From positions 30,892 to 94,891 of the IMG/VR virus record IMGVR_UViG_3300017992_000019: a stretch of DNA of 64,000 nt. One strand, 5' to 3'. This stretch comes from a virus. Positions 29,713-42,975 of this stretch are shown here, in pieces; positions within the stretch are counted from its first letter, which is position 1; the number at the start of each line of letters is the position of its first letter. A model generated the notes under the pieces. It ran no database searches. It saw only the letters and a list, made by a program, of their open reading frames with translations, and was not told where the DNA came from. Made by a program: the position numbers and the translations under genes.

Positions 29713-30116
29713 AACCGATCGGGGAGGTCTCTCCCATGTGGCCGTTCTCGCGTTTCAGAAAAAAGAAAGTGCAAGTCGAAACCAAAAAAGAGGGGGGAAA
29801 CGGGGAGGCAACCGACGTCGAGGTTGCACGCGAGAATCAAGTCACTCCTGTTGAGATTCTCCTCGCCGACTGCGAGGAGATCGAATCCCTTGACAGCGAG
29901 CCCGTAGTAGAGGACAACACCGGGGAGTTCCCCGAGGTCTACAACAAGCCGGGGATCGTCGTGAAAGAAAAAACGAGAGCTCAACGGCTACACAAACACG
30001 ATTCACAATCGCGGCGTGTCCTATGCGACATTGACAAACAGATCGAGCGGCTGAAAAAGATCCGGGAAAAGATCAAGGGAGGAACACTCAATGGGAAAGC
30101 AAAGGCGGAAACCTAA
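29709..30116 (+). CDS. Hypothetical protein (ATG 29736 is an alternative start)
   Basis: ORF with genome-typical codon usage, overlapping neighbours. Confidence 0.5.
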   Translation: MKPIGEVSPMWPFSRFRKKKVQVETKKEGGNGEATDVEVARENQVTPVEILLADCEEIESLDSEPVVEDNTGEFPEVYNKPGIVVKEKTRAQRLHKHDSQSRRVLCDIDKQIERLKKIREKIKGGTLNGKAKAET

Positions 30117-30417
30117 ATCGACGCCGACCTCGATCGAGATCCCACCGTGCGTCGGTTACTATGAGAAAGTCGAGATCGCTTGCGACGGCGACCCGGTCGG
30201 CGAAACCGAAATCGATCGGGTGCCGTGCTCGTGGCGAGACCATTGCCGCGCGTTCCGATCGCACCTTGAGCTCGCCGGACAATCGCCGGCGTCGCACATT
30301 GTCGAGGTGAGCAACGGCAACGGCCGACGGATTGGAAAACCAATCGCCGGCGAGGAGGCATTCCTCGAGTTGCTCGAGGAGAGTCTCCGCGGCTGGCAAG
30401 CAAGGGGGCAGGCATGA
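30091..30417 (+). CDS. Hypothetical Cys-rich protein
   Basis: GGAGG SD; PPC.G.Y...C...C.W..HC. Confidence 0.55.
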   Translation: MGKQRRKPKSTPTSIEIPPCVGYYEKVEIACDGDPVGETEIDRVPCSWRDHCRAFRSHLELAGQSPASHIVEVSNGNGRRIGKPIAGEEAFLELLEESLRGWQARGQA

Positions 30418-30794
30418 GCAAGACACGACGCGAACCCGAAGTGATCGACAACTCACCTCTCGTCGACGTCAAGATCGACGAGGTCGAATACAAGCTCACG
30501 CCGAAACGACTCCGGGATCTTGCCGGCGACATGCTCCTCGAGGAGCTCCTCCGGGTCGGCAATCTCCTCGGCGAGGCCGAGTCGCGACTCGTGCTCGTCG
30601 ACGCCGAGTATCGATCGTTCCGCGGCGTTGCAGTCAAGGCCGAGCTCGACAAGGATCCGAAACTGTCCGAGTGGAAAATCAAGGCGCGGATCGAAGCGAG
30701 CGCGGAGTTCCAGAAATTCAAGATCGGGATCGCGAAAGCGACGCGCGAGGTGCACGTGCTCCGCGAGACCCTCGCGACTCTCCGACTCCGGTGA
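30414..30794 (+). CDS. Hypothetical coiled-coil protein
   Basis: ATGA overlap; helical composition. Confidence 0.55.
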   Translation: MSKTRREPEVIDNSPLVDVKIDEVEYKLTPKRLRDLAGDMLLEELLRVGNLLGEAESRLVLVDAEYRSFRGVAVKAELDKDPKLSEWKIKARIEASAEFQKFKIGIAKATREVHVLRETLATLRLR

Positions 30795-30899
30795 TCGTCC
30801 GGCCGACTTGATTGTCGGGATCGGGCGAGACCTCCGAATCGAAAAACCGAGCTCGAGCTCGCGACCGGATCGCGAGACCCGGAACACCGATCCCGTGGC

Positions 30900-31135
30900 G
30901 ACGGGATCGACCTCCCGGCCGGGAGGGATCCAGCCGGGCACCCGGCCGGACTCCCACCGGGCCCCGGGCCGATCCAGCCGGGCGCCGGCGACCTCGAGGC
31001 CGACCTCCCGGCCGGGCCGGACTCCCACCGGCACCCACCGGCACCCACCGGCACCCACCGAGATCCACCGGCCGGATCCCTGATCTCGGGTCGAGCTCGA
31101 GGCCGACGGATCTTTTTTCGGGTTTTTTCGGGCCC
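30900..31135. repeat. GC-rich interspersed and tandem repeat region
   Basis: cgacctcccggccggg x2, gatccagccgggc x2, ggccggactcccaccgg x2, (cccaccggca)x3 plus a partial copy, ttttttcggg x2. Confidence 0.85.
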
Positions 31136-31484
31136 GGATCGCGGGTGCTCGTTGTGTGGTGCTCTGTGGCGCCTCACAGGACGGGCCGAGATCCGGGCGC
31201 AAACCCCGTGCCAGGCAGGGCCCCGGATCCCGGGAGACCGGGCGCGCCAGAATAGGCGCCTCGAGACGTCTCTCCGCGTCTCCTACGCTTGCCGGGCCGG
31301 ACACGACCCGACACCCCGGATCCCAGGCCGGAGGCCGCACAGGGCCCGCAATCGCCTCGCGCGAATTTCCCAAACAAAACGAGGCACTTACAAGAGGGTG
31401 AGCGAAAACTCGTTTTCGGTCAAGGGGTTGGCCGCTTGCAAGTATGCGTTCCGTAAGTGGAAAACGTACCGGCGAAAATAGTTG

Positions 31485-31513
31485 TTGCAATACGCGAAAC
31501 GGTGCCGTATACT
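31485..31513 (+). promoter_or_regulatory. Sigma70-type promoter
   Basis: TTGCAA-17 bp-TATACT with an A-rich upstream segment. Confidence 0.7.
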
Positions 31514-31547
31514 GTAAACATGAGGCCGGAGACCAAGACAAGCCCGA

Positions 31548-31567
31548 AACTGTGCAACGGCACAGTT
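31548..31567. promoter_or_regulatory. Dyad, putative enhancer (UAS) or operator
   Basis: AACTGTGC-aacg-GCACAGTT perfect 8-bp inverted repeat; second TGT-N8-ACA at 31597-31610. Confidence 0.55.
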
Positions 31568-31689
31568 CTTGCCCTGGATCCCCTACCTCGCAAAAATGTT
31601 CAAAAGCACACTATGAAAAATGTACTTTTTACACACCGTTTCTGCACCGCGTCACGGGCTAACTCGCTGAAACATAAGAGTTCAGGAGT

Positions 31690-31705
31690 TGGCACGCGGT
31701 TTGCA
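31690..31705 (+). promoter_or_regulatory. Sigma54 (RpoN) -24/-12 promoter
   Basis: TGGCAC-GCGGT-TTGCA, exact consensus spacing, in the AT-rich intergenic region. Confidence 0.8.
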
Positions 31706-31716
31706 GTAACATACTA

Positions 31717-32087
31717 ATAGTTGCTCATTGACAAAGGAACGGCGAAGCGAAGCAGGGACGGCCGGAAACAGTCCCACCGGGGCAACCCTCCCGGAGCTAG
31801 CAGGAAACACCGAGACCAACAAAAGCTAGTGTGACCCTACGGGGCACGGGTAGACGGGCGAAGCAAGGAGGAGCCGACAATGCCTCCGAGACCCGGGCGA
31901 CGAAACGGCCACATGACAAGCATGGGGCACGAGTAAAAAAGAGAGACGGCCGGCGAGAGTCGGCCACATGGGCGCGCACCGCGAGGCGGTCGCCGCGAGG
32001 TCGTACCTCGGCGCGCTCCTTTTGAGAGTTGAGAGATTGAAACCCTTTTGACCTTGTCGCGGACAAGGAAACCTTTTGGAGGATACC
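31717..32087 (+). ncRNA. Long structured 5' leader or candidate ncRNA
   Basis: About 370 nt without a credible gene; hairpins ggccggc-gaga-gtcggcc, accgc-gag-gcggt, cgagg-tcgta-cctcg, ccttgtc-gcg-gacaagg. Confidence 0.45.
31722..31734 (+). promoter_or_regulatory. boxA-like antitermination element
   Basis: TGCTCATTGACAA, 11/13 match to rrn boxA TGCTCTTTAACAA, just after the predicted sigma54 start. Confidence 0.5.
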
Positions 32088-33029
32088 ATGACCGCTAATA
32101 TCGAAACCCTGAAGTCTCAGACCTTCGGCGTCGAAATTGAATTCGTAGGTTGCACCCAGGAACGCGCCGCTCGCGCGGTGCACTCCGTTGTCGGCGGTCG
32201 GATCTTCGACCGCACCGTCGTTGCTCCCGACGGTCGCAAGTGGAAAGTCGTCTCCGACGGGTCGGTCGCCGGTGTCGGCGGCGAGCTCGTGACTCCGGTC
32301 CTCAAGTACGACGACATGGAAACCCTGCAAGAGGTCGTGCGGGCCATGCGTCGCGCCGGTTGCCGCAAGCACTCCTCGGCCGGTATTCACGTGCACGTCG
32401 GCGCTCGCGACATGACCGCCAAGCAGATCGTCAACGTGGTCAAGACTTGGAATCGGCAGGAACGGATCATTGTCAAGGCGCTCGACATTGAGGGTCGCAC
32501 CTACGGCACCAACGGTGCTCGCACTTGGGCCGCGTCTGCAAACCGCGACGTGATCCCCCGGATCCTCCGGTCCAAGCCTAAGACCATGAACAAGCTCGCG
32601 GCCGCTTGGTACGGCGAGAGCAACTATGAGTCGCGCACCTATCGCAAGTATGACTCGAGCCGGTATCACGCGATCAACCTGCACAACCTTTTTTATGGGT
32701 CGCACGGCACCATCGAATTTCGTTGCTTCAACTCGACCATGCACGCCGGCGAAATCCGCTCCTACGTCGTGCTCGCTCTCGCAGTCGTCGCCAAGGGTCG
32801 CAACGGCCGCGGCGCCTCGGTTGAGCAGCGCGCTTTCAATCCCGAAACCGCGAAATTCGATTTTCGCCAGTGGATGATCAAGCTCGGCATGATCGGCGCC
32901 GAGTTCAAGAATGTCCGCAAGCACCTTATGAAGCGCCTCCCGGGATCCTCCCGGTCGGCCAACACTGGCCGGACTCGCGGCGGTCACGCTCGCCGGAACA
33001 ACAACGTCGAGAATCACGCGAGCGTGTAA
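32088..33029 (+). CDS. Amidoligase (COOH-NH2 ligase type 2)
   Basis: 'TFGVEIEF', 'WKVVSDGSV', 'ELVTPVL', 'SAGIHVHVG', 'RYHAINL', 'GTIEFRCFNST'. Confidence 0.92.
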   Translation: MTANIETLKSQTFGVEIEFVGCTQERAARAVHSVVGGRIFDRTVVAPDGRKWKVVSDGSVAGVGGELVTPVLKYDDMETLQEVVRAMRRAGCRKHSSAGIHVHVGARDMTAKQIVNVVKTWNRQERIIVKALDIEGRTYGTNGARTWAASANRDVIPRILRSKPKTMNKLAAAWYGESNYESRTYRKYDSSRYHAINLHNLFYGSHGTIEFRCFNSTMHAGEIRSYVVLALAVVAKGRNGRGASVEQRAFNPETAKFDFRQWMIKLGMIGAEFKNVRKHLMKRLPGSSRSANTGRTRGGHARRNNNVENHASV

Positions 33030-33063
33030 GTCAACCTCAACCCCGGGCGCTCCGGCGCCCGGG

Positions 33064-33130
33064 TGTCGAAACGCCGGCAACGCGCCGGCGTCTATCGGGG
33101 ATCGCCTCCCGATACTGACGAGACAGGCGA
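33064..33130 (+). ncRNA. Type II hammerhead ribozyme with pseudoknot
   Basis: tgtc-GAAA-cgccggc/gccggcg-TC^-tatcggg/cccgata-CTGACGA-gaca; loop I tcgcc pairs with 3' ggcga; predicted cleavage after C33092. Confidence 0.92.
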
Positions 33131-33158
33131 CGACAAGGAAACCGAAAAGGAGGAAACC

Positions 33159-33551
33159 ATGTCTTGCAAAGTGTTCGTGTATGGCACGCTCCTCGAGGGC
33201 GAGCCGAATCACAGGGTGCTCGGCGACTCCGAGCTCCTCGGCACCGCGACGACTCGGCCGGCTTTCCGGTTTGTCGATTGCGGATACTACCCGGCCGCAC
33301 TCACCGACGGCGAAACGGCGATCGTCGGCGAGGTCTACCGGGTCAACGACGAGACGCTCGAGGATCTCGATCGTCTCGAGGGTGTTCCTCGGTTGTACCA
33401 GCGCAAGCGGATCAAGCTCGCCGACGGATCGGTTGCTTGGATCTACTTGCTCAACCCCGAGGGTTACTACGGCCGGCGCGAAATGCCGGCGATCGAGTGC
33501 GGCGACTGGCGCGCGCACCTCGACGCGAAATACGGCGCGGCCGCGTCGTGA
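33159..33551 (+). CDS. Gamma-glutamylcyclotransferase (AIG2/YtfP-like)
   Basis: 'VFVYGTLLEGEPNH', 'GEVYRV....LEDLDRLEG.P.LYQR', 'I..GDW'. Confidence 0.92.
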   Translation: MSCKVFVYGTLLEGEPNHRVLGDSELLGTATTRPAFRFVDCGYYPAALTDGETAIVGEVYRVNDETLEDLDRLEGVPRLYQRKRIKLADGSVAWIYLLNPEGYYGRREMPAIECGDWRAHLDAKYGAAAS

Positions 33552-33561
33552 GGAGGAAACC

Positions 33562-33795
33562 ATGACACCCGAAATCACAGTCGAGCAGAGACGGAAGTAC
33601 AGAGAGATCGACACCCGGAATCTCCGGGCGATCTTCATTGCCAACCCGCGCGGCGAAATGCGGCGCATCTTTCCGAAAGCGGCACGACAGGGAATCGGCG
33701 CTCGGAGCGTGAGCGAGATCGTCGTGTGCTTGATCCACGTCGGCGAGCTCAAGGTCGACACCGACTCCGGCCGGTATGAGTGGATCGGAAACTGA
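33562..33795 (+). CDS. Hypothetical small protein (winged-helix-like)
   Basis: AGGAGGAAACCATG start. Confidence 0.55.
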   Translation: MTPEITVEQRRKYREIDTRNLRAIFIANPRGEMRRIFPKAARQGIGARSVSEIVVCLIHVGELKVDTDSGRYEWIGN

Positions 33796-33810
33796 AAAGT
33801 GTTCGAGATA

Positions 33811-33893
33811 GGGGATCCCGGTATCCGGCCCGACAGGCATTGACTCCCAATGTCTCGCGTTTCCCCGACGCGACGGCCGGCGCCGGGATCCCC
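33811..33893 (+). ncRNA. Stalked double-hairpin element (family B, copy 1)
   Basis: 11-bp + 6-bp stalk enclosing ggcattg-actcc-caatgtc and tcgcgt-ttccccg-acgcga. Confidence 0.6.
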
Positions 33894-33902
33894 ACTTTAT
33901 CA

Positions 33903-33962
33903 TTTCCGAGGGAGGAATCGCAACCCTCCCCGACTTGTGTCCCGGCGATACGGGATCGGAAA
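33903..33962 (+). ncRNA. Three-way-junction motif A, copy 1
   Basis: P1 tttccga/tcggaaa; P2 gggagg/cctccc; junction CGACTTGTG; P3 tcccg/cggga. Confidence 0.75.
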
Positions 33963-33998
33963 CCCAAACAGGCAAGGAAACCTTGCAAGGAGGAAACC

Positions 33999-34325
33999 AT
34001 GCACGACTTTGACATGAGAAAAAGACGGATCCGAATGACCCTCGAGGAGACGAGGAAAAAGATCGTCGAATTCGCAAACAAGAACGACGTCGGTTTCGAC
34101 TTTCACGAGCCCGACTGTCCCAACGGAGTCAAGGCCAAGGTCCGCGGGATCTGCTTTGACAACGCGCACGGCGATCACGGCGGCGAGTACACGACCCGCA
34201 CCGGCAAGCGGCGCGGTCCTTACGAAATGATCGTGATCCTCACCGACGACGACGGCAACAAGATCCGCGTCAACCTCGCGACGCTCTTTGCGCTCGCGAC
34301 AATGGATCACCGGAACAAGTTGTAG
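33999..34325 (+). CDS. Hypothetical protein
   Basis: AAGGAGGAAACCATG start. Confidence 0.65.
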   Translation: MHDFDMRKRRIRMTLEETRKKIVEFANKNDVGFDFHEPDCPNGVKAKVRGICFDNAHGDHGGEYTTRTGKRRGPYEMIVILTDDDGNKIRVNLATLFALATMDHRNKL

Positions 34326-34334
34326 GAGGGCGCC

Positions 34335-34664
34335 ATGAGTGCACAAGCAAAATGGAGGGAGCTCGCGGTGAGGTTGAGCTCGGCGTTCGTGACCGAGTAT
34401 CGGGTGAGCGGAAAACTCGACAGGCTCGTTTCGCGCACCGCGAATTTTATCCTCGAGGATCCCGAGAACAACGAGTCGGTCGCGGCCGGGCATATCAAGA
34501 TCGAGCTCGAGGAGGATTATCGCGACATGCTCGGGTATTACAAAGACACCCAAGACGAGATCAAGCGGTTGACGATCGAGCTCGGATTCGAGCTCGCGAT
34601 CGCGGCGTTTGTGGTCTCGGTCAAGAGCGCGGCCATGCGTCGCGTCAAGGAGTGCCGGCAATGA
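34335..34664 (+). CDS. Hypothetical protein
   Basis: GGAGG SD; helical ORF. Confidence 0.6.
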   Translation: MSAQAKWRELAVRLSSAFVTEYRVSGKLDRLVSRTANFILEDPENNESVAAGHIKIELEEDYRDMLGYYKDTQDEIKRLTIELGFELAIAAFVVSVKSAAMRRVKECRQ

Positions 34665-35185
34665 AACCGAAAACCATATTACGCAAGGGCCGGCGCGACT
34701 ACGGCCGGCCGAGTCTCAACGAAACACTCAAGCTCGGCGTGTTGGTCTTTGCCTACGGGAGCAACCTCGACGTCGATCAGATGTTTCGCCGTTGTCCCGA
34801 CTCGCTCGTCGTTGGTCCGGCGTTCCTCCCGGGATACTCGCTCGAGTTTGTCGGGCACTCCCGCGGGTGGGCCGGCGCCGTCGCGAATGTCTACAAGTCG
34901 AGCCGAGGGTGTAACGTGCCGGGCATGGTCTACCGGGTGACACCGGAGGATCTCGCGCACCTCGACGCTTGCGAGGGTGTGCCGTACACATACGAGCGGG
35001 TCAAGGTCCGGGTGAAAATGTTCGACGGCAAGCGGCGCACCGTGCACGTGTATCTCCGACAGGGAGATCCCGAGCTCGGGTATCCGTCGGTCCGATACTT
35101 CCGGGCGATCTATCGCGGTTACATGCTCTGGCAGTTTCACACAAACCACATTACCCGACTGTTTCGCGCGGCCGGGTATTCATAA
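34661..35185 (+). CDS. Second gamma-glutamylcyclotransferase
   Basis: 'VFAYGSNLDVDQM.RRCP', 'LDACEGVPY.YER', 'PS..YF..I..GY'. Confidence 0.9.
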   Translation: MKPKTILRKGRRDYGRPSLNETLKLGVLVFAYGSNLDVDQMFRRCPDSLVVGPAFLPGYSLEFVGHSRGWAGAVANVYKSSRGCNVPGMVYRVTPEDLAHLDACEGVPYTYERVKVRVKMFDGKRRTVHVYLRQGDPELGYPSVRYFRAIYRGYMLWQFHTNHITRLFRAAGYS

Positions 35186-35198
35186 GAAAGGAGATTGA

Positions 35199-35257
35199 CC
35201 TCGCGGAGAGCTCGTCGCGGAGCTCTCCGACTTTTGCTCCGGCGTAGGAGCGCGAGG
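35199..35257 (+). ncRNA. Three-way-junction motif A, copy 2
   Basis: P1 cctcgcg/cgcgagg; P2 gagagctc/gagctctc; junction CGACTTTTG; P3 ctcc-ggcgta-ggag. Confidence 0.75.
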
Positions 35258-35281
35258 GAAACGAAAACCAAGGAGGGAATC

Positions 35282-35659
35282 ATGCCCGCACATTGTCAAA
35301 CGGAAATGTACGACGACCGCAACCCGCTCGCGAAGTGGCGGATCACTCACTCATGGATCGAGGAGGTCGGCGTCGTGGGAGACGAGAGAAAGAAAACCCC
35401 GATCGACGTCGTCGGCCCGAGGACTTGTCCTCCCGACGAGGACGATCACAAATTCAAGTGGACCGAGTTTCGGATCTACGACGACGACGGCGAGCTCTAC
35501 TATGAGGGGATCATGAACGAGCATTGCGAGGGGCTCGACCCGCTCGACGACTTCGGCACGCCGAATGCCGGCGCGACCGAGTTGCGGATCAAGGTCAAGG
35601 ATCAGGAGTGCCCGACGTGCAAGGGCACCGGCAAATGCGACCGTTGGGAAACGGTCTGA
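35282..35659 (+). CDS. Hypothetical protein with C-terminal CxxCxGxG
   Basis: 'FRIYDDDGELYYEG...PLDDFG.PNAGATE' conserved phage-type motif. Confidence 0.65.
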   Translation: MPAHCQTEMYDDRNPLAKWRITHSWIEEVGVVGDERKKTPIDVVGPRTCPPDEDDHKFKWTEFRIYDDDGELYYEGIMNEHCEGLDPLDDFGTPNAGATELRIKVKDQECPTCKGTGKCDRWETV

Positions 35660-35672
35660 AAGGAGATCGGTC

Positions 35673-36257
35673 ATGGTACGGTTACCGATACGGGTTCCGA
35701 CGGCCGAGGAGAGGTACAACGAAAAGCTCGAGTTGATCGCACGCTTCGCGCACGTGCCGGAGTCGGTCGTGCGCGCCTTGCATCGATCCTACATGAGAGT
35801 CGGCCGGATGAAATGCTACACCGACGGCGGGCCGGTCACGCGCAAGCATCGACGGGCCGGTCACGACAGCATGAGAAAGCGCGCGCTCGACGAGCTCCGG
35901 CGCACGATGCTCGAGATCCTCGGCGGTCCTTTCGCCGGGTCAAGCGCGTTGTGGTATCGCGGTCTCCGCGAGCAAGCTCACGCCGATCGCGCGTGGTCGT
36001 TGCTCAATGACCTCGTCGAGGCATACGACGCGCGGCGCGAGCACGACGGTTTGTGTTCCCCGGAGACGATCGCGAAAGTGATCCACGATCACATGAGCAA
36101 GGATCAGCGGCGCGGGTATTTCCGCGAGCAATTTTTCGGCGACAACGCTTTCGAGGAGATCCTCGGAAAGGTCAAGCTCCCGGACTTCTCGCACTTGCAC
36201 CTCGCCGAGATCCTCGACGCTCTCGAGAGTCTCTTGTATCCCAACGCGGCCGAGTGA
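35673..36257 (+). CDS. Hypothetical protein
   Basis: AAGGAG SD, ATG 35673. Confidence 0.6.
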   Translation: MVRLPIRVPTAEERYNEKLELIARFAHVPESVVRALHRSYMRVGRMKCYTDGGPVTRKHRRAGHDSMRKRALDELRRTMLEILGGPFAGSSALWYRGLREQAHADRAWSLLNDLVEAYDARREHDGLCSPETIAKVIHDHMSKDQRRGYFREQFFGDNAFEEILGKVKLPDFSHLHLAEILDALESLLYPNAAE

Positions 36258-36273
36258 TATCACCGGCCGGCAA

Positions 36274-36336
36274 GGTCTCGCGAGGCGCGCGTCGCGGCGC
36301 GCCTCGACTTGTGCTCCGGCGTAGGAGCGCGAGACC
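36274..36336 (+). ncRNA. Three-way-junction motif A, copy 3
   Basis: P1 ggtctcgcg/cgcgagacc; P2 aggcgcgc/gcgcgcct; junction CGACTTGTG; P3 ctcc-ggcgta-ggag. Confidence 0.75.
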
Positions 36337-36400
36337 GTCTCGCGGGTCTCCCCGGCCGCGAGACGTGCCAACCACGGGGAGGCGACTAAAGGAGGGACTC

Positions 36401-38323
36401 ATGCCACGAACAGATCCATACGAGGGACTCAACGACGCACAACGCGAGGTCGTTGCTTTCAACGAGGGCAAGATCGTCGTGTGTAGCGTTGCGGGGTCGG
36501 GCAAGACGTTGACGGTGATCCGTCGCATGTCGAGGCTCGAGCTCGACGGGCAGGATCCAAAGCGGATCGTTGCAACGACTTTCACAACCAAAGCGGCCGG
36601 CGAAATGAACGACAGGCTCGCGGCCGAGGGTTGCCCGGTACGCGGCCGGGGATCCGACGAGGGCGCCCGGGTCGGCACCTTTCACTCGGTGTCGCTTGAG
36701 GTGATCCGGGACGGTGCACCCGAGGCAAACTACAAGGTCGACGGCAAGAATCGCATGAAACTCGAGCTCAAGAAAATCCTCGGGCACACTCAAATGGATT
36801 GGAAAGGCGTCGACCTCACCGAGGTCGAATCCTGGATCGCTCACAACAAGCATGAGCTTGTGCGGCCGGAGGAGTCGAGACACCCGGAGGATCGCAGATT
36901 CGACGAGGCATACGCGCGGCATGAGGAGACCCGGGACTCTCTCGGGTTGATCACTTTCGACGACATGCCAATGCTCGCGGTTGAGTATTTGCGTTCCGAT
37001 CGCGACGCTCGCGACCGGTGGTCGACTGCTTACGATCACGTGATCGTCGACGAGGCCCAGGACGCTAACAAGGCGCAATGGGCGCTCGCCGAGATCCTCG
37101 GCGAAAACGCAAAGTCGATCATGCTCGTCGGTGACGACGATCAGTCGATCTATGAGTGGCGCGGCGCCGTGCCGGCATACCTGATCGAGTATGCGAAGCG
37201 CGCGACCGTGGTCAAGCTCGAGATCAACTACCGGTGCCGGCCGGAAATCGTCGACGCCGGCAACAAGGTGATCAAGCACAACACCGACAGGATCAAGAAA
37301 TCGGCGACGGCCGCGCGGCCGGATGCCGCGACCGTGAAATACCGACGAGTATACAACCTCGACGCCGAGGCCGAGCTCGCGCTCGAGCAGATCCGCGAGA
37401 TCGTTGCCGACGGTGTCAAGTATGGTGAGATCGCGATCCTGTATAGGACCAACGCGCAAAGCCGGGCTTTCGAGGAGGTCTTTTTGCGCGAGTCGATCCC
37501 GCACGTCGTGATCGGCGGGACCGATTTTTACGACCGCAAGGAGGTCAAGGATCTCCTCAACTACCTCAAGCTCGCAAGCAAGCTCACCGACAACAAGGCG
37601 TTTCGGGATTGCGTCAACCGGCCTTTCCGTTTCATTGGAAAGCAGACGATCGAGAAAATGCAAAGCGAGGCCGAGTCGCGCGGGATCTCAATGTGGAAAG
37701 TGTGCCGCATGGTTGCCGAGGGCGAGATCAGATTGCCGCGGGTCAATGCGTCACAACTTCGCAACCTCCGAGAGTTTCGCCGGACGGTCAAAAAAGCTCG
37801 CTCGATCCTCAAGGAGGAGAGCTCGAGGATCTCCGATGTGTTCCTCTCGGTGCTCCGCGAATCGAAATACCTGGAATGGCTCAAGCGCGACGAGGGATCC
37901 GACACGTCGGAGAATTCCCGCGAGAGCAACGTGCGAGAGTTGATCCGCACCTCGGATCGTTTCGAGACCGTCAAGGAGTTCCTCGAGTATCTCGACAACC
38001 TCGCGGCCGAAAAGCGCAAGCGGAAAAACGGAGAGACCGGAAACCTGATCCAGCTTATGACCGTGCACAAGTCAAAGGGTCTCGAGTTTCCCGTCGTGTT
38101 CGTATCGGGCGCGACCGAGTTGATCCTCCCGCACGCTCGCACGGCCAACCCGGAGGAGGAGCGCCGGTTGTATTACGTCGCGATCACCCGGGCCCGGGAT
38201 CAACTGTATGTCACCTCGCCGGCGTGTCTACTCGTCGGCGGCAAGGTGACCGAGCTCGACCCGTCGCGCTTTGTCAACGAGTCGGAGGTCAACCGCTACG
38301 CGGCCGAGGAGGCGACAGCATGA
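36401..38323 (+). CDS. uvrD: UvrD/PcrA-family SF1 helicase
   Basis: 'LNDAQREVV', 'AGSGKT', 'TFTTKAA.EM', 'VDEAQD', 'VGDDDQSIYEWRGA', 'LMTVHKSKGLEF', 'EERRLYYVAITRAR'. Confidence 0.95.
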   Translation: MPRTDPYEGLNDAQREVVAFNEGKIVVCSVAGSGKTLTVIRRMSRLELDGQDPKRIVATTFTTKAAGEMNDRLAAEGCPVRGRGSDEGARVGTFHSVSLEVIRDGAPEANYKVDGKNRMKLELKKILGHTQMDWKGVDLTEVESWIAHNKHELVRPEESRHPEDRRFDEAYARHEETRDSLGLITFDDMPMLAVEYLRSDRDARDRWSTAYDHVIVDEAQDANKAQWALAEILGENAKSIMLVGDDDQSIYEWRGAVPAYLIEYAKRATVVKLEINYRCRPEIVDAGNKVIKHNTDRIKKSATAARPDAATVKYRRVYNLDAEAELALEQIREIVADGVKYGEIAILYRTNAQSRAFEEVFLRESIPHVVIGGTDFYDRKEVKDLLNYLKLASKLTDNKAFRDCVNRPFRFIGKQTIEKMQSEAESRGISMWKVCRMVAEGEIRLPRVNASQLRNLREFRRTVKKARSILKEESSRISDVFLSVLRESKYLEWLKRDEGSDTSENSRESNVRELIRTSDRFETVKEFLEYLDNLAAEKRKRKNGETGNLIQLMTVHKSKGLEFPVVFVSGATELILPHARTANPEEERRLYYVAITRARDQLYVTSPACLLVGGKVTELDPSRFVNESEVNRYAAEEATA

Positions 38324-38730
38324 AAAAGGACAAGGAGAAAAAGGTGATCGTGATCGACAACACCGGCGAGGGCAAGGGCGGCAAGCGGCGCCGGCCGGGC
38401 AAGCGGCGCCGGCAGAAATCCGCACCGCGGCCGAGCATCGTGCCGGAGGATGGGCCCGAGTTGCACCCGCGGACTCGCAACAAGATCCTCCGGCAACTTG
38501 CGGCCGAAGCGCGCAAGGTCGGCGGATCGTGCGTCGCGTTGCGGTGCTCGCTCGACCACGTCGGCGACGTGCTTGTGCTGGCGCCTCTCCTCGAGGCGAT
38601 CGTGCGTCTCAAGGAGATCGAAAAAGACGCGGTCAAGCTCGGATACAAGCCGGACAGATTCGCGCCCGCAACCCGGGGCGCGTTTCTCTCCGGTCTGATC
38701 GAGACCCTACGGATCAAAGGGAGGAGGTGA
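38320..38730 (+). CDS. Hypothetical basic protein
   Basis: ATGA overlap; GGAGG SD. Confidence 0.55.
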   Translation: MKKDKEKKVIVIDNTGEGKGGKRRRPGKRRRQKSAPRPSIVPEDGPELHPRTRNKILRQLAAEARKVGGSCVALRCSLDHVGDVLVLAPLLEAIVRLKEIEKDAVKLGYKPDRFAPATRGAFLSGLIETLRIKGRR

Positions 38731-38903
38731 TCGTGCACGCGAGGATCAAAGCGGTGATCGGAGACGGCGAGCGACAAGCGGTTCGTTTTGAGTGCCCGCA
38801 TTGCAAGCAAGAGACCACGGTCGAGGTTCCGGTCGGGACCGACAACTACCACGGCCGGGCGGTCGTGTGCTCCTATTGCAAGCGGACTCTCTCGCTCGAT
38901 TGA
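38727..38903 (+). CDS. Small zinc-ribbon protein
   Basis: CPHC...CSYC; GTGA overlap. Confidence 0.55.
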   Translation: MIVHARIKAVIGDGERQAVRFECPHCKQETTVEVPVGTDNYHGRAVVCSYCKRTLSLD

Positions 38904-38916
38904 ATCGAAAGGAGGT

Positions 38917-38969
38917 GCACCGAGGGAGGGTGAAATCCCCTCCCCGACTTTTGCCCGAAAGGGCGGTGC
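38917..38969 (+). ncRNA. Three-way-junction motif A, copy 4
   Basis: P1 gcaccg/cggtgc; P2 gggaggg/ccctccc; junction CGACTTTTG; P3 ccc-GAAA-ggg. Confidence 0.75.
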
Positions 38970-38992
38970 CGGAAACCCGAAAGGAGGATGCT

Positions 38993-39913
38993 ATGCCTTG
39001 CATTTGCTATGTCGAAAAGAATTTCTCGGCGGGCTCGCGCGAAGTGATCGCGCAAGCAAACGAGATCGTCGAGGCGTACCAAGCACAGGATCTTGTGCTC
39101 ACCTTGCGTCAACTGTATTACCGGTTTGTCGCGAGCGATCTGATTCCCAACACCGACCGGTCGTACAAGAGACTCGGGTCGATAATCAACGACGCGAGAC
39201 TCGCCGGCGAGATCGATTGGAACGCGATCGAGGATCGCGGTCGCAACCTGATCCGGCGCTCGCATTGGAGCACACCGGGCGGGATCATTTCCTCGGCCGC
39301 GGCGTCGTATGCGATCGACAAGTGGAAAGGTCAAGACAACTACGTCGAGGTTTGGGTCGAGAAACAGGCGCTCGAGGCAATCATCGATCAGGCGTGCGAG
39401 CCTCTCGACGTCAACTGTATCGCGTGCAAGGGATACATGAGTCAATCCGAAATGTGGCGCGCGTCGATCCGTTACAGGGAAATGATCCAGGCCGACCGGA
39501 CGCCGGTGATCATTCACCTCGGCGACCACGACCCGAGCGGTCTGGACATGACCCGCGACATACAAGATCGTCTCGAGATTTTCGGCGTGCAAATGGAGGT
39601 CAACAGGATCGCGCTCAACATGGATCAAGTCGAGGAGTTTGATCCTCCTCCGAATCCCGCGAAGCTCTCCGACAGTCGCGCGGCCGGATATATCACCGAA
39701 TTCGGATCGGAGTCGTGGGAGCTCGACGCGCTCGAGCCGGCCGTGCTCCGGGATCTGATCCGCAAGACGATCCGGTCGTACCTCAACAAGAAAAAGTTCA
39801 AGGCGCGCGAGCAACGCGAGGAATCGGAACGCAACGCGCTCGAGGAGGTTTCGGATCGGTGGAACGAGGTTGTCGAATTTCTCGAGATCGAGAGCACCGA
39901 CGAGGAGGATTGA
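38993..39913 (+). CDS. Topo VI-A/Spo11-like winged-helix + TOPRIM protein
   Basis: 'TLRQLYYRFV', 'VEVWVEK', 'HLGDHDPSGLDM', 'RIAL...Q', 'WELDAL'. Confidence 0.8.
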   Translation: MPCICYVEKNFSAGSREVIAQANEIVEAYQAQDLVLTLRQLYYRFVASDLIPNTDRSYKRLGSIINDARLAGEIDWNAIEDRGRNLIRRSHWSTPGGIISSAAASYAIDKWKGQDNYVEVWVEKQALEAIIDQACEPLDVNCIACKGYMSQSEMWRASIRYREMIQADRTPVIIHLGDHDPSGLDMTRDIQDRLEIFGVQMEVNRIALNMDQVEEFDPPPNPAKLSDSRAAGYITEFGSESWELDALEPAVLRDLIRKTIRSYLNKKKFKAREQREESERNALEEVSDRWNEVVEFLEIESTDEED

Positions 39914-39917
39914 TCCA

Positions 39918-40169
39918 ATGGGCGACGGGATTTGCAATTTTTGCTTGATCCGAAATATCCGGGCGCGCGCAAAAACCAAAGGTCTCGAGGTGACCGTGCT
40001 CCCGTCTCCCGACGACGAGGAGGCGGGACTCAAGCCACCCGGGAACGATGTTTTCATGCACCCCCCGGGGATCTCGGTCAAGCTCCTCGAGGAGGATCGA
40101 CCCGACGACGGGCCCGGCGACTTTTGGGTTTGTTGGGTCTGGACGATCCCCAAGAAATGCGAATGTTGA
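39918..40169 (+). CDS. Hypothetical Cys-containing protein
   Basis: GGAGG SD; CNFC ... C-terminal CEC. Confidence 0.55.
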   Translation: MGDGICNFCLIRNIRARAKTKGLEVTVLPSPDDEEAGLKPPGNDVFMHPPGISVKLLEEDRPDDGPGDFWVCWVWTIPKKCEC

Positions 40170-40173
40170 TCTT

Positions 40174-40249
40174 GACGCCGGCGTCGGAGGCCCGACCGGG
40201 ATCCCTCCCCGCGGCCGGGTTACGCGCCCGGCGCCGGCGTCTTTTTTTT
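40174..40249 (+). terminator. Long hairpin plus U8, intrinsic terminator or attenuator
   Basis: 14-bp stem gacgccggcgtcgg/ccggcgccggcgtc followed by T8. Confidence 0.7.
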
Positions 40250-40269
40250 GGAGGGGAAAGGAGTTTCTC

Positions 40270-40512
40270 ATGTCAGTCAAAACCTACACACTCGATCCCG
40301 ATCTCAAGGGAATCGGCGGCGACCATGCCGGCAAGTTGCTCGCGAGAGCATACGACAACGGCGGCGAGCTCGAGCTCCTCAAGACCGCGGGCGACATGTT
40401 TGTCGACATGCTTCCGAGCAAGGAGGAGCTCGTCGCGATCGCGACAGGCAAGGCGATCCTTGTCGGTCACGGTCTCGAGCTCATGTATGCAGTCAACCGC
40501 GAAAGGAGTTGA
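40270..40512 (+). CDS. Hypothetical protein
   Basis: AAGGAG SD, ATG 40270. Confidence 0.55.
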   Translation: MSVKTYTLDPDLKGIGGDHAGKLLARAYDNGGELELLKTAGDMFVDMLPSKEELVAIATGKAILVGHGLELMYAVNRERS

Positions 40513-40514
40513 TC

Positions 40515-40979
40515 ATGCCTCCCCGCTTTATCCAGTACACGGCCGACGAGGTCAAGGCGAAGCTCGAGCCGGCCGGGTTCAAGGTCGTGAGACTGCACCG
40601 GTGCGGCGAGCTTGTGCTCGAGCGCGAGATCGATGATCACCCGGACGTCAAGATCCGGGTATACTCCTCGATCGCGATCCACAACGGCGACGCACGCGAA
40701 GTCGGCACCGACGCCGGCCGGGTGCTCCTGATCGATCGCAAGACCGACAAGCCGGTTTGGAAATCGAAGCGTGCACACCGCACGCAAAACTTTCTCGACG
40801 CGCTCCTCGCAAGGTGCCGCGTCGCATACAAGGCCGTCTCTACTCTCCCGCGGTGTCCCGTCTGCAAGGGATACATGGTCGAGCGATCCAAGCGCGGCGA
40901 GCGCAAGCCGTCGTTTCTCGGTTGCTTGAAATTTCCGGCGTGCCGTGGTACGCGAAACATTCCCCGGGGCCGGAGGTGA
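40515..40979 (+). CDS. Protein with C-terminal topoisomerase-type C4 zinc finger
   Basis: 'CPVCKGYMVER......FLGCLKFPACRGTR'. Confidence 0.7.
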   Translation: MPPRFIQYTADEVKAKLEPAGFKVVRLHRCGELVLEREIDDHPDVKIRVYSSIAIHNGDAREVGTDAGRVLLIDRKTDKPVWKSKRAHRTQNFLDALLARCRVAYKAVSTLPRCPVCKGYMVERSKRGERKPSFLGCLKFPACRGTRNIPRGRR

Positions 40980-40982
40980 CCA

Positions 40983-41198
40983 ATGGGTCGGATCATGAAA
41001 TGCCGACATTGCGACGCCGAGCTTGTATGCAAGGCGTGCGGCGAAAAGCAAACCCAACGCAAGAAAACCGAGACCAAGAAACTCACCGTGCACGTCGATC
41101 CGGCGCGCGACGAGGAGCTCACGGCCGAGGCCGAAAAACTCGGGATCAGTAAGTCGGAGCTTGTGCGGCGTCGACTTGCGGCCGGAGGCGAGGAGTGA
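40983..41198 (+). CDS. Zinc finger + ribbon-helix-helix (CopG-like) regulator
   Basis: CRHC..CKAC; 'KKLTVHVD.....L..EAEKLGISKSELVRR'. Confidence 0.7.
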   Translation: MGRIMKCRHCDAELVCKACGEKQTQRKKTETKKLTVHVDPARDEELTAEAEKLGISKSELVRRRLAAGGEE

Positions 41199-42763
41199 TC
41201 CCGGTTCGCACGCGCCTCGACACTCACCTTGTGCTCGACATTGACGATCTCGGTCCGCGCGCAACGAATGCACTCCGCGAGGAATTCACGCGGAGCAATC
41301 CGGCGTTTTTCAAAAAGCGACGAATGGGTCACTGGATCGGCGACACGCCGAGCAAGCTCAAGTCGTGGGCCCTCGAGGGTCGTTGGTTGATTCTCCCTCG
41401 AGGGTCTCTCGACCGGGTCGAGGAGACGCTCTCGAGCCTCGAGAGGCGCCTCGACCCGATACGCGACCGGATGCACTCATGCGAGCCGGCCGGGCTTTCC
41501 CTGCGAGCCGGGCGGGCCATGAGGCCATACCAGATCCCCGCGGTGCGGCACCTCGTTGACAACGGCCGGCCGGGCGCGATCGTCCGGGGCGGTTGCGGAT
41601 CGGGCAAGACCGTCGTGCTCCTCGGAGCGATCGCCGAGATCAATCAACCGGCGATCGTTGTCGTGCACTCGATCCCTCTCCTCAACCAATGGCGCAAAGC
41701 CGTCTCTCACTGGCTCGGTGTTATCCCGGGAGAGATCCGCTCGGGCAAGTTCAAGCTCGGGACGATCACGATCGCGACGCAAGCGAGTTTGTGGTCGCAG
41801 TACAAGAAAGGCAAGCTCGACTGGTTTGACCGATACGGCGTTCTTGTCGGCGACGAGATCCACCGATGGGCCGCGAAAACCTTTCAAGCGGTCGCGTCCG
41901 TTTTCCCGGCCGCGTATCGGATCGGTGCCTCGGCCGACGAGCGACGCAAGGATCAAATGGAGCACCTGATCTATGAGACGTTCGGATCCGAGGTCTACAA
42001 GATCAAGCGCGACGAGTGTCTCGCGGCCGGGTCTCTCCTCCCGGTGAAATTCGAGGTCGTGCCGACCGGATACTCCGACCTTGTGTATCTGTCGTCGGTC
42101 CGCACCGCTCACATTTGCGAGACGTGCAACGCCGAGCTCCGGGCCCCGGACATGCGAGCGAAAGCGAAACCCGGCCGGCTGAAATACTGCCCGGTATGTG
42201 ATCGCAACGTCGAGCCCGAGGTTCCTGATTGGGGCGGGATGATCAATCGCATGGTCGACGACGAGGAACGCAACGACTTGATCGAGGAACACGTGCACCG
42301 GGTGATCCAGGATCCCAAGACGCGGATCTTGATTCTCAACGAGCGGGTCGAGGCGTGCCGTAGTTGGGCCGCGCGTCTCGAGCTCCGCGGTGTGCCGGCC
42401 GGGCTCATGATCGGCGGGCCCGAGAATCGCAAGGAGCTCGACCGCACTATCTCCGGGATCCGCTCCGGCACGATCCGGGTTGCCGTCGGCACGTCCGTCG
42501 CCGACGAGGGTCTCGATCTCCCCGCGCTCTCGCACGTGTTTTGTTCCTGCCCGGTGCACACCCACAAGAAACGACTCAAGCAAATGATCGGACGCGCGGC
42601 CCGGCCGCATGAGGACAAGCAACACGCGACGTGCGTTTATTTTTGGGATCAAAATCTTTTCCCTCCTCAGTATGACGGCCACAACCCGGAGGCGTATCAG
42701 AAAGCAAAGGAGTCGTTTCTCCGATCGCTCAAGCGATCCGGCGACTCGCTCGTTGTGTTGTAG
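41195..42763 (+). CDS. SF2 DExH helicase (UvsW/XPB-like) with zinc-ribbon insertion
   Basis: 'MRPYQ', 'GCGSGKT', 'DEIH', 'GASA', 'DEGLDLP', 'QMIGRAAR'; CETC...CPVC insert. Confidence 0.9.
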   Translation: MIPVRTRLDTHLVLDIDDLGPRATNALREEFTRSNPAFFKKRRMGHWIGDTPSKLKSWALEGRWLILPRGSLDRVEETLSSLERRLDPIRDRMHSCEPAGLSLRAGRAMRPYQIPAVRHLVDNGRPGAIVRGGCGSGKTVVLLGAIAEINQPAIVVVHSIPLLNQWRKAVSHWLGVIPGEIRSGKFKLGTITIATQASLWSQYKKGKLDWFDRYGVLVGDEIHRWAAKTFQAVASVFPAAYRIGASADERRKDQMEHLIYETFGSEVYKIKRDECLAAGSLLPVKFEVVPTGYSDLVYLSSVRTAHICETCNAELRAPDMRAKAKPGRLKYCPVCDRNVEPEVPDWGGMINRMVDDEERNDLIEEHVHRVIQDPKTRILILNERVEACRSWAARLELRGVPAGLMIGGPENRKELDRTISGIRSGTIRVAVGTSVADEGLDLPALSHVFCSCPVHTHKKRLKQMIGRAARPHEDKQHATCVYFWDQNLFPPQYDGHNPEAYQKAKESFLRSLKRSGDSLVVL

Positions 42764-42793
42764 CAACGAGTTCCGCGCGGCCGCAATTTTCTC

Positions 42794-42822
42794 TTGACAG
42801 ACGATCCCCCTTGCCATACCGT
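42794..42822 (+). promoter_or_regulatory. Sigma70 promoter of the replication operon
   Basis: TTGACA-17 bp-TACCGT in an intergenic region. Confidence 0.7.
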
Positions 42823-42888
42823 CGCGACTCTAGGCGTCGGAGGATCTATTGCTGCACAGACCGTTGATCTTTTTTTGTGGGTAAGAAT

Positions 42889-42954
42889 CGGGTTCCCTCG
42901 GGTCTCTCGGGCCGACCGCGTTGGTCCCCCGACGCCTAAGCCCGAGGGGGCCCG
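42889..42954 (+). ncRNA. Stalked hairpin element (family B) in the replication leader
   Basis: 15-bp stalk with G-U pairs enclosing gcgttgg-tccc-ccgacgc. Confidence 0.55.
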
Positions 42955-42975
42955 TCTTTTGAAAAGAGAGGGGCA

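Follow-up and report, generated by a model that had tools for sequence, protein, structure and literature searches.

Four elements of 53-63 nt, all on the + strand of an uncultured tailed phage, share the order P1, P2 hairpin, CGACUUKUG, P3 hairpin and P1', and the evidence supports a real, repeated and covarying three-way junction whose single-stranded core is conserved. Tentatively, with a probability of roughly 40%, we interpret these elements (e1 to e4) as an intercistronic processing/stability module, in which an RNase E-like site would lie between protective hairpins.

Architecture and operon context

The elements belong to a single early operon. Its features are given below with positions in the window, that is, the whole stretch of 64,000 nt analysed:

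32088-40169, + strand: early operon with all five RNA elements (ORF and Shine-Dalgarno calling, intergenic folds, Pfam, PHROGs)
33064-33132, + strand: type II hammerhead, full length (Rfam RF02276, E 6.6e-7)
33811-33895, + strand: separate structured element just upstream of e1 (fold of 33796-33998)
33903-33962, + strand: e1, fold -24.8 kcal/mol, z = -1.8 against dinucleotide shuffles; P1 33903-33909/33956-33962; P2 33910-33915/33925-33930, loop AAUCGCAAC; junction CGACUUGUG, 33931-33939; P3 33940-33944/33951-33955, loop GCGAUA; 36 nt from the 3' end to ATG at 33999
35199-35257, + strand: e2, own fold, z = -3.39; P1 35199-35205/35251-35257; P2 35206-35213/35220-35227, loop GUCGCG; junction CGACUUUUG, 35228-35236; P3 35237-35240/35247-35250, loop GGCGUA; 24 nt to ATG at 35282
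36274-36336, + strand: e3, own fold, z = -4.09; P1 36274-36282/36328-36336; P2 36283-36290/36297-36304, loop GUCGCG; junction CGACUUGUG, 36305-36313; P3 36314-36317/36324-36327, loop GGCGUA; 64 nt to ATG at 36401
36337-36364, + strand: hairpin directly 3' of e3, its stem GUCUCGCG/CGCGAGAC repeating e3 P1, with a C-rich loop
38917-38969, + strand: e4, own fold, z = -3.34; P1 38917-38922/38964-38969, then unpaired A 38923; P2 38924-38930/38938-38944, loop UGAAAUC; junction CGACUUUUG, 38945-38953; P3 38954-38956/38961-38963, GAAA tetraloop; 23 nt to ATG at 38993
40174-40249, + strand: branched intrinsic terminator (stalk plus inner hairpins) with a U8 tail, closing the operon

Sequence reading and folding bore out the coordinates and architecture proposed for the four copies in a first-pass annotation, which had placed their ends some 25-65 nt before start codons, the exact distances being 36, 24, 64 and 23 nt; e1 stood overall, with its P2 corrected to GGGAGG/CCUCCC and a 9-nt loop. 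The operon begins with amidoligase, the hammerhead gap, GGCT and a 77 aa protein, followed by e1; proteins of 108 aa and 109 aa and a GGCT-like one of 174 aa are encoded between e1 and e2, proteins of 125 aa and 194 aa between e2 and e3, a UvrD helicase and proteins of 136 aa and 56 aa between e3 and e4, and a phrog_6247 'topoisomerase' (306 aa) and an 83 aa protein after e4. The elements mark off sets of two or three genes. Five operon gaps exceed 35 nt, and the motif occupies four of them and the hammerhead the first, between the amidoligase and GGCT genes, all in gene orientation; motif and hammerhead hold the same kind of position, as had been claimed. The hammerhead itself, also predicted beforehand, scores 48.5 bits, above the gathering score of 37. 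A leader of the same kind (GGAAACC...GAAA...AGGAGG-ATG) follows the hammerhead and each element. The terminator was located by the fold of 40170-40269 and by a terminator-like scan (stem 40224-40240, then CTTTTTTTT), and the hairpin at 36337-36364 is predicted to offer an alternative partner for e3 P1/P1'. Upstream of e1, the structure at 33811-33895 consists of a long stalk around two hairpins whose loops are rich in C; a U-rich stretch comes after it.

Covariation and the conserved junction

Each element folded alone forms the three-way junction, with minimum free energies from -24.8 to -44.3 kcal/mol across the four. The first-pass annotation had claimed covarying stems around a conserved single-stranded junction, and the alignment agrees: 13 of the 19 stem pairs changed on both sides and are still paired, whereas only one of nine junction columns varies (the base K). 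Paired cells amount to 98.6%, a value that none of 500 shuffles reached, and slid controls were 33-65% paired. Judging from these double-sided changes and paired cells, the structure is under selection. Around the junction, ~15-17 bases are invariant while the stems covary, and the spacing of CGRRG-N19-CGAC is constant in 4/4 copies; K does not track the sub-groups described below (G in e1, U in e4; U in e2, G in e3). The three junction strands contain 9, 0-1 and 0 single-stranded bases. Predicted unpaired probabilities for the central junction bases are ~0.7-1.0, both alone and with 40-nt flanks, with e3 partly excepted: here they are high at A and UU only, and ~0.3 for the 3' KU. The pair probability of e3 P1 falls to 0.05 with 100-nt flanks.

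The four copies are two half-related pairs. The P2 stem is common to e1 and e4, and P3, its loop and inner P1 are common to e2 and e3; the 3' half and P2 loop of e3 are identical to those of e2 save for K, with paired changes at five positions of the P2 stem. Because of these common parts, the copies are not four independent witnesses. All 70 paired cells are Watson-Crick, without any G-U pair, and the reverse strand folds equally well, so pairing alone cannot tell the strand, nor RNA from DNA; G-U pairs are likewise absent from the hammerhead and terminator of the same phage. No tertiary contact is conserved across the four copies: complementarity between the P2 and P3 loops reaches 5 bp in e1 and 3 bp in e2 and e3, and is absent in e4, and loop lengths in e1/e2/e3/e4 are 9/6/6/7 nt for P2 and 6/6/6/4 nt for P3.

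Occurrence of the motif and known families

CGACTTKTG occurs six times in the window, always on the + strand, against 1.48 expected, and none of 100 shuffles reached six; the two extra copies (40118 and 52904) are within ORFs and non-folding (z -1.35 and -1.08). When the 94,891-nt virus contig was scanned with a descriptor that tolerated one mismatch in the junction, only e1-e4 had good stems (P1 6-9 bp, P2 6-8 bp, P3 3-5 bp), and no further copy was found in the remaining 86 kb of the phage outside the operon. Covariance model R1, built from e2 and e3 alone, recovers e1 (36.6 bits, E 2.6e-6) and e4 (20.3 bits); with R2 the scores are 67.7 and 43 bits, respectively.

No homologue was found in eleven related viral contigs (helicase 36-50% identical), in ~1.1 Mb of fetched loci, in three core-pattern scans of IMG/VR (nor any identical or near-identical copy outside the phage), or among the matches listed in a core-pattern scan of GTDB genomes; on the basis of these collections, then, only one phage species has the motif, which makes it an orphan. 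The lack of covarying homologues elsewhere, found here for the collections searched, had been named in the first-pass annotation as one of three observations that would jointly refute function. In the closest relative within reach, with a helicase 50% identical, promoters and terminators take the place of both motif and hammerhead, and conservation is thus unusable as support. A scan of Rfam 15, set beforehand as a novelty check, matched no existing family to the motif even at E<=10, including the hammerhead, twister, twister-sister, pistol, hatchet and HDV models, whose cores the motif had been said to lack. ARAGORN reported nothing tRNA-like in the elements.

Proposed processing module and alternative readings

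Given that the motif has no catalogued family and no counterpart in any other genome searched, its probable role is that of a signal for cutting or stabilising the transcript, with a ribozyme unproven. We infer that the elements act as RNA and are cut, as well as the site and agent of the cut: they would be cis-acting modules punctuating the ~8-kb early transcript. P1 would clamp two GC-rich hairpins and keep GACUUKU, the only U-run in the purine-rich gaps, single-stranded between them, and an RNase E-type protein endoribonuclease, if the host has one, would cut the junction strand. RNase E prefers RN|WUU, with U at +2, in single-stranded AU-rich RNA (PMC5222698); AC|UUU in e2 and e4 fits this rule exactly, and AC|UUG in e1 and e3 fits at the W and U+2 positions, the third being G, not U. 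After the cut, the message upstream would keep P2 at its 3' end as a protective hairpin, and the one downstream would begin with the P3 hairpin as a 5' cap, followed closely by an A-rich leader and a strong Shine-Dalgarno. The operon would be split into two- or three-gene messages, each with its own stability, the same job as that of the hammerhead in the first gap. Segmental mRNA stability elements are exemplified by the intercistronic hairpins of the Rhodobacter puf operon. The same role is found in T7, where an early precursor of ~7,000 nt made by the host polymerase is cleaved at five structured intercistronic RNase III sites (R0.3, R0.5, R1, R1.1 and R1.3) into mono- to tri-cistronic messages with protective hairpins (PMC4858673). 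The phage operon resembles it in its five structured gaps within ~8 kb. However, each T7 site is one irregular hairpin of ~20 bp that has an internal loop and is cleaved in its double-stranded RNA, whereas the motif is a three-way junction with a longest helix of 8-10 bp and a single-stranded conserved part. The U-rich strand with adjoining stable hairpins is also like RNase E sites, and by analogy such hairpins could shield the ends left by a cut; RNase E sites are ordinarily degenerate, with no clamping helix, unlike the nine bases and adjacent CG pairs of the motif, near-invariant in a fixed geometry. Against the module, the halves after the cut would still be joined by P1 (6-9 bp), the lack of G-U pairs leaves room for a DNA-level role, and a bare nuclease site has no obvious need for conserved CG, CGAC and constant 19-nt spacing, which hint that the partner is more specific or that catalysis is involved.

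Catalysis would imply a new small self-cleaving ribozyme class, with 5'-CG(A)-P2-CGACUUKUG-P3-(U)CG-3' as candidate core, cutting the operon transcript like the neighbouring hammerhead. We regard this as unlikely, despite the same kind of gap as the confirmed hammerhead, a conservation similar to that of small ribozyme cores (the invariant bases, covarying stems and constant spacing) and the lack of a match to known families. Hammerhead and mixed ribozyme arrays were reportedly described between phage and prophage genes by Perreault et al. in 2011 and Weinberg et al. in 2015. Not all motifs found beside ribozymes are known to cleave, the Drum motif being an example. The clustering of self-cleaving ribozymes with each other and near phage genes, invoked in the first-pass annotation, is documented, twister-sister, pistol and hatchet were found by proximity to known ribozymes, and a role for ribozymes in processing polycistronic transcripts linked to phages has been proposed (PMC6765202). 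Arrays reviewed there lie, as the motif does, after one stop codon and before the following ribosome-binding site, and both share consecutive gaps, a three-helix junction and similar size, one gap here holding a real type II hammerhead; unlike a hammerhead, the motif has no CUGANGA / GAAA / UH core, no Rfam ribozyme model scores, and single-stranded bases are in one junction strand instead of three. Furthermore, the copies are only four, paralogous, and confined to one species as two half-related pairs, so invariance may partly reflect recent duplication; tertiary contacts are not conserved, loop lengths vary, and P3 of e4 has only 3 bp, with a GAAA loop. The candidate new RNA class stands as an orphan covarying fold without Rfam match, and its ribozyme reading gained no direct support. 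A specific partner would instead make the elements a platform for a host factor (Hfq, NusB/S10) or phage protein recognising single-stranded CGACUUKUG between two hairpins and controlling downstream translation, antitermination or Rho access, which is rather unlikely. The sequence-specific single strand between stems of free sequence is in its favour, the classical Hfq site being a U-rich single strand between stem-loops, and 7 of the 13 operon proteins, without family assignment, could include the partner; but no RNA-binding or antiterminator family was detected by Pfam and PHROGs in the ten operon proteins scanned, no N-like protein was identified, and the elements, 23-64 nt from start codons, do not occlude Shine-Dalgarno sites. 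Lambda-type nut sites (boxA plus boxB hairpin) similarly place a short conserved single-stranded box by a hairpin in an early phage transcript, yet the likeness to boxA (CGCUCUUUA) is weak, at 5/9 positions, antitermination sites are normally found singly, close to a promoter, and not in every gap, and P1 closes the motif.

A leaky intrinsic terminator or hairpin-dependent pause, in which P2 plus the U-rich junction would lower transcription step by step through the operon, modulated by P1 and P3, seems improbable. With P2 extended by 2 bp (10 bp) and followed by ACUUUUG, e2 tops the list of a consensus terminator-like scan, and GGGGAGG-loop-CCTCCCC-GACTTTTG lies directly before the ribosome-binding site in four unrelated IMG/VR phage groups, where it looks like an ordinary hairpin-plus-U terminator. 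Nevertheless, only one of four copies was flagged, e1 and e3 carry UUGUG and not a U-tract, the conserved 4-nt CGAC between stem and U-run makes poor geometry in e1 and e4, whereas the clear terminator of this phage has its U8 tail right at the stem, and P1 and P3 are left unexplained. Very improbable, finally, is a DNA-level element, either a recombination or cassette-joint site (integron attC, T4-type PeSL) or a small mobile insertion, whose hairpins would matter in DNA with the RNA fold incidental. The exclusively Watson-Crick pairing, the equal folding of the reverse strand, the marking off of small gene groups and the mosaic halves common to e1/e4 and e2/e3 agree with it, and the hairpin duplicated at 36337-36364 without the P2-J-P3 insert could look like an empty site. 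PeSL-type cassette-joint modules were reportedly described by Arbiol et al. in 2010; like the motif, those of T4-like and crAss-like phages are short, sharply bounded, hairpin-forming and non-coding, at joints of small early gene groups, but their copies in different phages are almost identical in sequence and include promoters, whereas stem sequences are free in the motif, which has no promoter consensus and, in the three IMG/VR scans, no near-identical copy outside the phage, in contrast to modules truly exchanged. Both the attC core (RYYYAAC/GTTRRRY) and a target-site duplication are absent, the elements are strictly co-oriented with transcription in one operon only, and the genuine RNA structures of the phage share the all-Watson-Crick pairing.

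The early operon and its intergenic elements

The window is part of a virus contig of 94,891 nt in which all genes lie on the + strand and which encodes a myovirus (tail sheath, tape measure and baseplate genes are present). The phage has no cultured relative, the closest match to its PolB among 50,697 phage records being only 25% identical; identical phage sequence occurs in public metagenome runs of several studies, under the labels sediment (2018) and seawater (2021). Its early operon encodes an amidoligase, two gamma-glutamyl cyclotransferase-like proteins, a UvrD helicase, a protein matching the PHROG “topoisomerase” family and seven further proteins without functional family, one of which matches a PHROG of unknown function. 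Five intergenic gaps of the operon exceed 35 nt: the first contains a hammerhead ribozyme, and each of the other four contains one copy of a three-way-junction motif (e1–e4). The first-pass annotation had described this motif as an unrecognised four-copy RNA, candidate for a new ribozyme or regulatory class, and had placed a hammerhead about 0.8 kb upstream; the latter was identified by Rfam in the first gap. The features are the following:

32088-40169, + strand, early operon, preceded by a 1.3-kb non-coding region
33064-33132, type II hammerhead, full-length (Rfam RF02276; 48.5 bits, the gathering threshold being 37)
33903-33962, + strand, element e1, read directly from the sequence
35199-35257, + strand, element e2, read directly from the sequence
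36274-36336, + strand, element e3, read directly from the sequence
38917-38969, + strand, element e4, read directly from the sequence
40174-40249, branched terminator at the operon end (10-bp GC stalk around hairpins with C-rich loops, then U8)

The start of the operon (32088-35185) comprises the amidoligase (PF12224) and the two GGACT/AIG2-like cyclotransferases, with the hammerhead situated between the amidoligase and the first cyclotransferase; such peptide-ligase/cyclotransferase gene sets are known from phages. The operon terminator appears to be a member of a second family of stalk-plus-two-hairpin elements, the others being found at 33811-33895 and ~42880-42960. An A-rich leader and a strong Shine-Dalgarno site are common to the 3' side of the hammerhead and of every element.

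Each element consists, in order, of helix P1 (6-9 bp), a P2 hairpin (6-8 bp, loop of 6-9 nt), the junction strand CGACUU(G/U)UG, a P3 hairpin (3-5 bp, loop of 4-6 nt) and P1', beyond which the sequence is purine-rich. P1 and P2 are contiguous or one unpaired base apart, P3 and P1' are directly adjacent, and the single-stranded bases thus lie on one junction strand. The four copies and the architecture first described were confirmed, as the sequence, the separate folds and a descriptor scan agree, and every copy adopts the three-way fold on its own (z -1.8 to -4.1). Including the closing pairs, the conserved core can be written as 5'-CG(A)-[P2]-CGACUUKUG-[P3]-(U)CG-3' (K = G/U), and the spacing from CGRRG to CGAC is exactly 19 nt in 4/4 copies. 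In the window the junction 9-mer is present six times where 1.5 are expected, and every occurrence is on the + strand; the two surplus copies are unstructured and within genes. Its central bases are predicted to be unpaired with probabilities of ~0.7-1.0 in three of the four copies (for the 3' KU of e3 the value falls to ~0.3), and it constitutes the sole U-run of otherwise purine-rich gaps.

The covariation of the stems around a conserved junction, also claimed at first reading, was reproduced by a structure-guided alignment, in which 98.6% of cells are paired and 13 of 19 pairs show changes on both sides. No shuffle reached this level of covariation, and pairing fell to 33-65% when the partners were slid. 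A covariance model built from e2 and e3 alone recovers e1 (36.6 bits) and e4 (20.3 bits). No fifth copy came to light when the entire contig was scanned with a descriptor, or when the 64-kb window was scanned exhaustively with a covariance model. Generic three-way folds are detected by a loose descriptor about once per kb per strand in this GC-rich DNA, and the signal therefore lies in the shared junction and the compensated stems, not in the fold shape alone. Only one of the nine junction columns is variable, vs. 13 of the 19 stem pairs; by our arithmetic, if the junction varied at the stem-pair rate, one or fewer variable columns would arise in under one case per thousand. Nonetheless, the four copies are not independent samples, since they share halves: e1 and e4 have a GGGAGG/CCUCCC P2 stem in common, and e2 and e3 have the same P3, both loops and inner P1, differing almost only in five compensated P2 pairs. 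The junction base K crosses these pairings (G in e1, U in e4; U in e2, G in e3). G-U pairs are absent from the elements, as well as from the hammerhead and the terminator of this phage, so that pairing can tell neither the strand nor RNA from DNA.

Comparison with known families and search for homologues

At gathering thresholds, Rfam 15 returned the hammerhead at 33064-33132 only. The elements match no family even at E<=10, in accordance with the novelty initially proposed: scans of 33700-40300, and of an 81-nt e2 stretch with the laxest filters, gave only chance matches to miRNA, snoRNA, sRNA, lncRNA and CRISPR-repeat models, with no score from hammerhead, twister, twister-sister, pistol, hatchet, HDV, hairpin, Drum or tRNA models. 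The CUGANGA/GAAA/UH hammerhead core is present in 0/4 elements and no hammerhead model (RF00163, RF00008, RF02275-7) matches at E<=10; hammerheads display single-stranded bases on three junction strands, whereas the motif does so on one. Derivation from the adjoining hammerhead was also rejected, the motif and hammerhead models giving no cross-match. A T7-type RNase III site presents about two helical turns (~20 bp) of nearly unbroken duplex, along with proximal and distal boxes; the motif does not conform to this type, its longest continuous helix being of 8-10 bp and its conserved bases single-stranded. Screening for intrinsic terminators (GC-rich hairpin with a U-tract within 0-2 nt) flagged only e2, with an extended P2; in e1 and e4 the hairpin is followed by a spacer of 4 nt, and the U-rich stretch of e1 and e3 reads UUGUG.

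Other candidates were discarded on specific grounds. ARAGORN predicted 0 genes in 30000-43000 and no Rfam tRNA match was obtained, against a tRNA- or tmRNA-like nature. The P1 arms are mutually unrelated and lack the R''/R' cores (RYYYAAC/GTTRRRY) of integron attC sites, and three pattern scans of IMG/VR revealed no near-identical copies of the kind expected from an exchanged cassette-joint module. The lambda nut boxA consensus is CGCUCUUUA(ACA); by direct comparison with this consensus, the junction agrees at only 5/9 positions. Complementarity for conserved pseudoknots or kissing loops is inconsistent between copies, and the complement of the junction, which an antisense partner would require, is absent from the non-coding + strand RNA of the phage. 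No element (0/4) contains a + strand sigma-70 promoter-like match, the closest one being on the minus strand (39015-38988), 19 nt downstream of e4; hairpin promoters of a phage RNA polymerase were also dismissed, no such polymerase being recognised among the large proteins. The motif is uncatalogued and real, and it is located where ribozyme hunters look.

Homologues were sought in IMG/VR with three patterns based on sequence and two based on the core, and in GTDB genomes with one; the matches listed were due to chance. The IMG/VR scans with CGACTTKTGYYCCGGCG (26 stretches) and CCTCCCCGACTTKTG (49 stretches) yielded nothing beyond chance matches and simple terminators of the hairpin-plus-U kind. 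The core patterns CGAGG-N17-CYCGACTTKTGY and CGGAG-N17-YCCGACTTKTGY gave 13 and 6 IMG/VR matches, together with at least 120 in GTDB genomes; a loose junction filter was passed by 3 of the 139 matches listed, with marginal stems, and none was convincing. Two loci (L248 and L256) have a vaguely similar fold which overlaps an ORF on the opposite strand. The covariance model from all four copies, R2, found no convincing match in the fetched loci (~1.1 Mb), in ten similar-sized IMG/VR contigs whose helicase is 36-41% identical to that of the operon, or in contig L385, whose helicase (P0008) is 50% identical; among the contigs that encode the nearest helicases (P0002-P0027, 42-56% identical), the search covered that of P0008. 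A 22-bit R2 match among the ten contigs, in L188, lacks the junction. Homologues were thus not encountered with the patterns, in the fetched loci or in the related contigs, and on the evidence of these sequence searches the motif is an orphan, known so far from one uncultured phage species only. The same phage is represented in contigs of four DNA runs, where the elements are identical throughout and thus offer no natural variation.

The early genes of L385, a contig with no hammerhead, no three-way-junction motif and no Rfam RNA, are divided by sigma-70-like promoters and hairpin-plus-U terminators; RNA punctuation thus appears to have replaced, or to have been replaced by, transcriptional punctuation in this phage group. 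A promoter region is found in place of the motif in L028 (1.8 kb, helicase 53% identical). Furthermore, L205, L207, L235, L201 and their relatives, IMG/VR loci from four unrelated phage groups, present GGGGAGG-loop-CCTCCCC followed by GACTTTTG, a ribosome-binding site and a start codon. These signals appear to be of the ordinary hairpin-plus-short-U intergenic type; their letters recall P2 and the junction, but P1 and P3 are absent.

Proposed intercistronic processing and alternative readings

From the established placement, fold and accessibility of the elements we infer, tentatively (with a probability of about 40%), an intercistronic processing and stability module that would be cut by an RNase E-type nuclease. 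This is the simplest account given the gap placement beside the hammerhead, the co-orientation, the free stems around a fixed strand, the unpaired U-run and the shared leader. With the junction severed, the upstream message would carry the P2 hairpin at its 3' end, and the downstream message the P3 hairpin at its 5' end. RNase E recognizes the motif RN|WUU, with an important U at +2 (PMC5222698); the junction resembles such a single-stranded site both in sequence and in predicted unpairedness, AC|UUU (e2, e4) being exact and AC|UUG (e1, e3) retaining the critical U+2. The nearest functional precedent for the proposed division of the operon is the early transcript of T7, of ~7,000 nt, with five intercistronic RNase III cuts (PMC4858673), and phage hammerhead arrays have been proposed to divide transcripts likewise (PMC6765202). 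The motif may be classed with the structured intercistronic punctuation of phage operons.

A gap position equivalent to that of the hammerhead and an unexpectedly rigid core are what a new class of small self-cleaving ribozyme (~55 nt, with the CGACUUKUG strand and the closing CG pairs as its core) would also present alongside the hammerhead; the absence of a conserved tertiary contact, the variable loops, the stunted e4 and the narrow sampling nonetheless make it unlikely. The displayed single strand suits a protein-binding site controlling translation, antitermination or Rho, a reading that we consider improbable, as the analysis revealed no partner and it would be unusual for such a site to recur four times in an operon. 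Leaky termination or pausing is distinctly improbable, since it suits e2 alone. As to a joint or mobile unit acting at the DNA level, the entirely Watson-Crick stems and the duplication of a P1 hairpin after e3 (36337-36364) speak for it, but strict co-orientation, restriction to one operon and the failure to find copies elsewhere render it very improbable.

Should the elements be cut, whether by a nuclease as in the processing reading or by themselves, this phage would show hammerheads and an unrelated second RNA device to be interchangeable dividers of an early operon, and this interchangeability, if true, would bear on the long-open question of the purpose of bacterial and phage self-cleaving ribozymes. 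A compact module of 55 nt in which two protective hairpins flank an exposed, defined cleavage site would also be useful for insulating genes in synthetic operons; were it self-cleaving, it would represent a new natural ribozyme class.

Open frames and local sequence features

The frames of the downstream genes are open backwards through the elements (33780-34325, 35195-35659, 36053-38323 and 38792-39913), and the junction shares the frame of the downstream gene (as CGA CUU KUG) in every element except e1. A coding role was rejected, as e1 is off frame, the stem changes are non-synonymous and strong SD-ATG starts lie downstream; the open frames were judged an effect of GC content.

Adjoining e3, a hairpin with a C-rich loop (36337-36364) contains the exact P1 stem of this element (GUCUCGCG/CGCGAGAC). 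Each strand has thus two competing partners, and the duplication could be a switch or a scar; the pairing probability of e3 P1 falls to 0.05 when 100-nt flanks are included. Shine-Dalgarno-like GAAAGGAG(G) sequences at 35187-35195 and 38907-38915 precede e2 and e4 by 2-5 nt and are not followed by any usable start codon, and in the P2 of e1 and e4 the GGGAGG strand is paired with an anti-SD-like CCUCCC.
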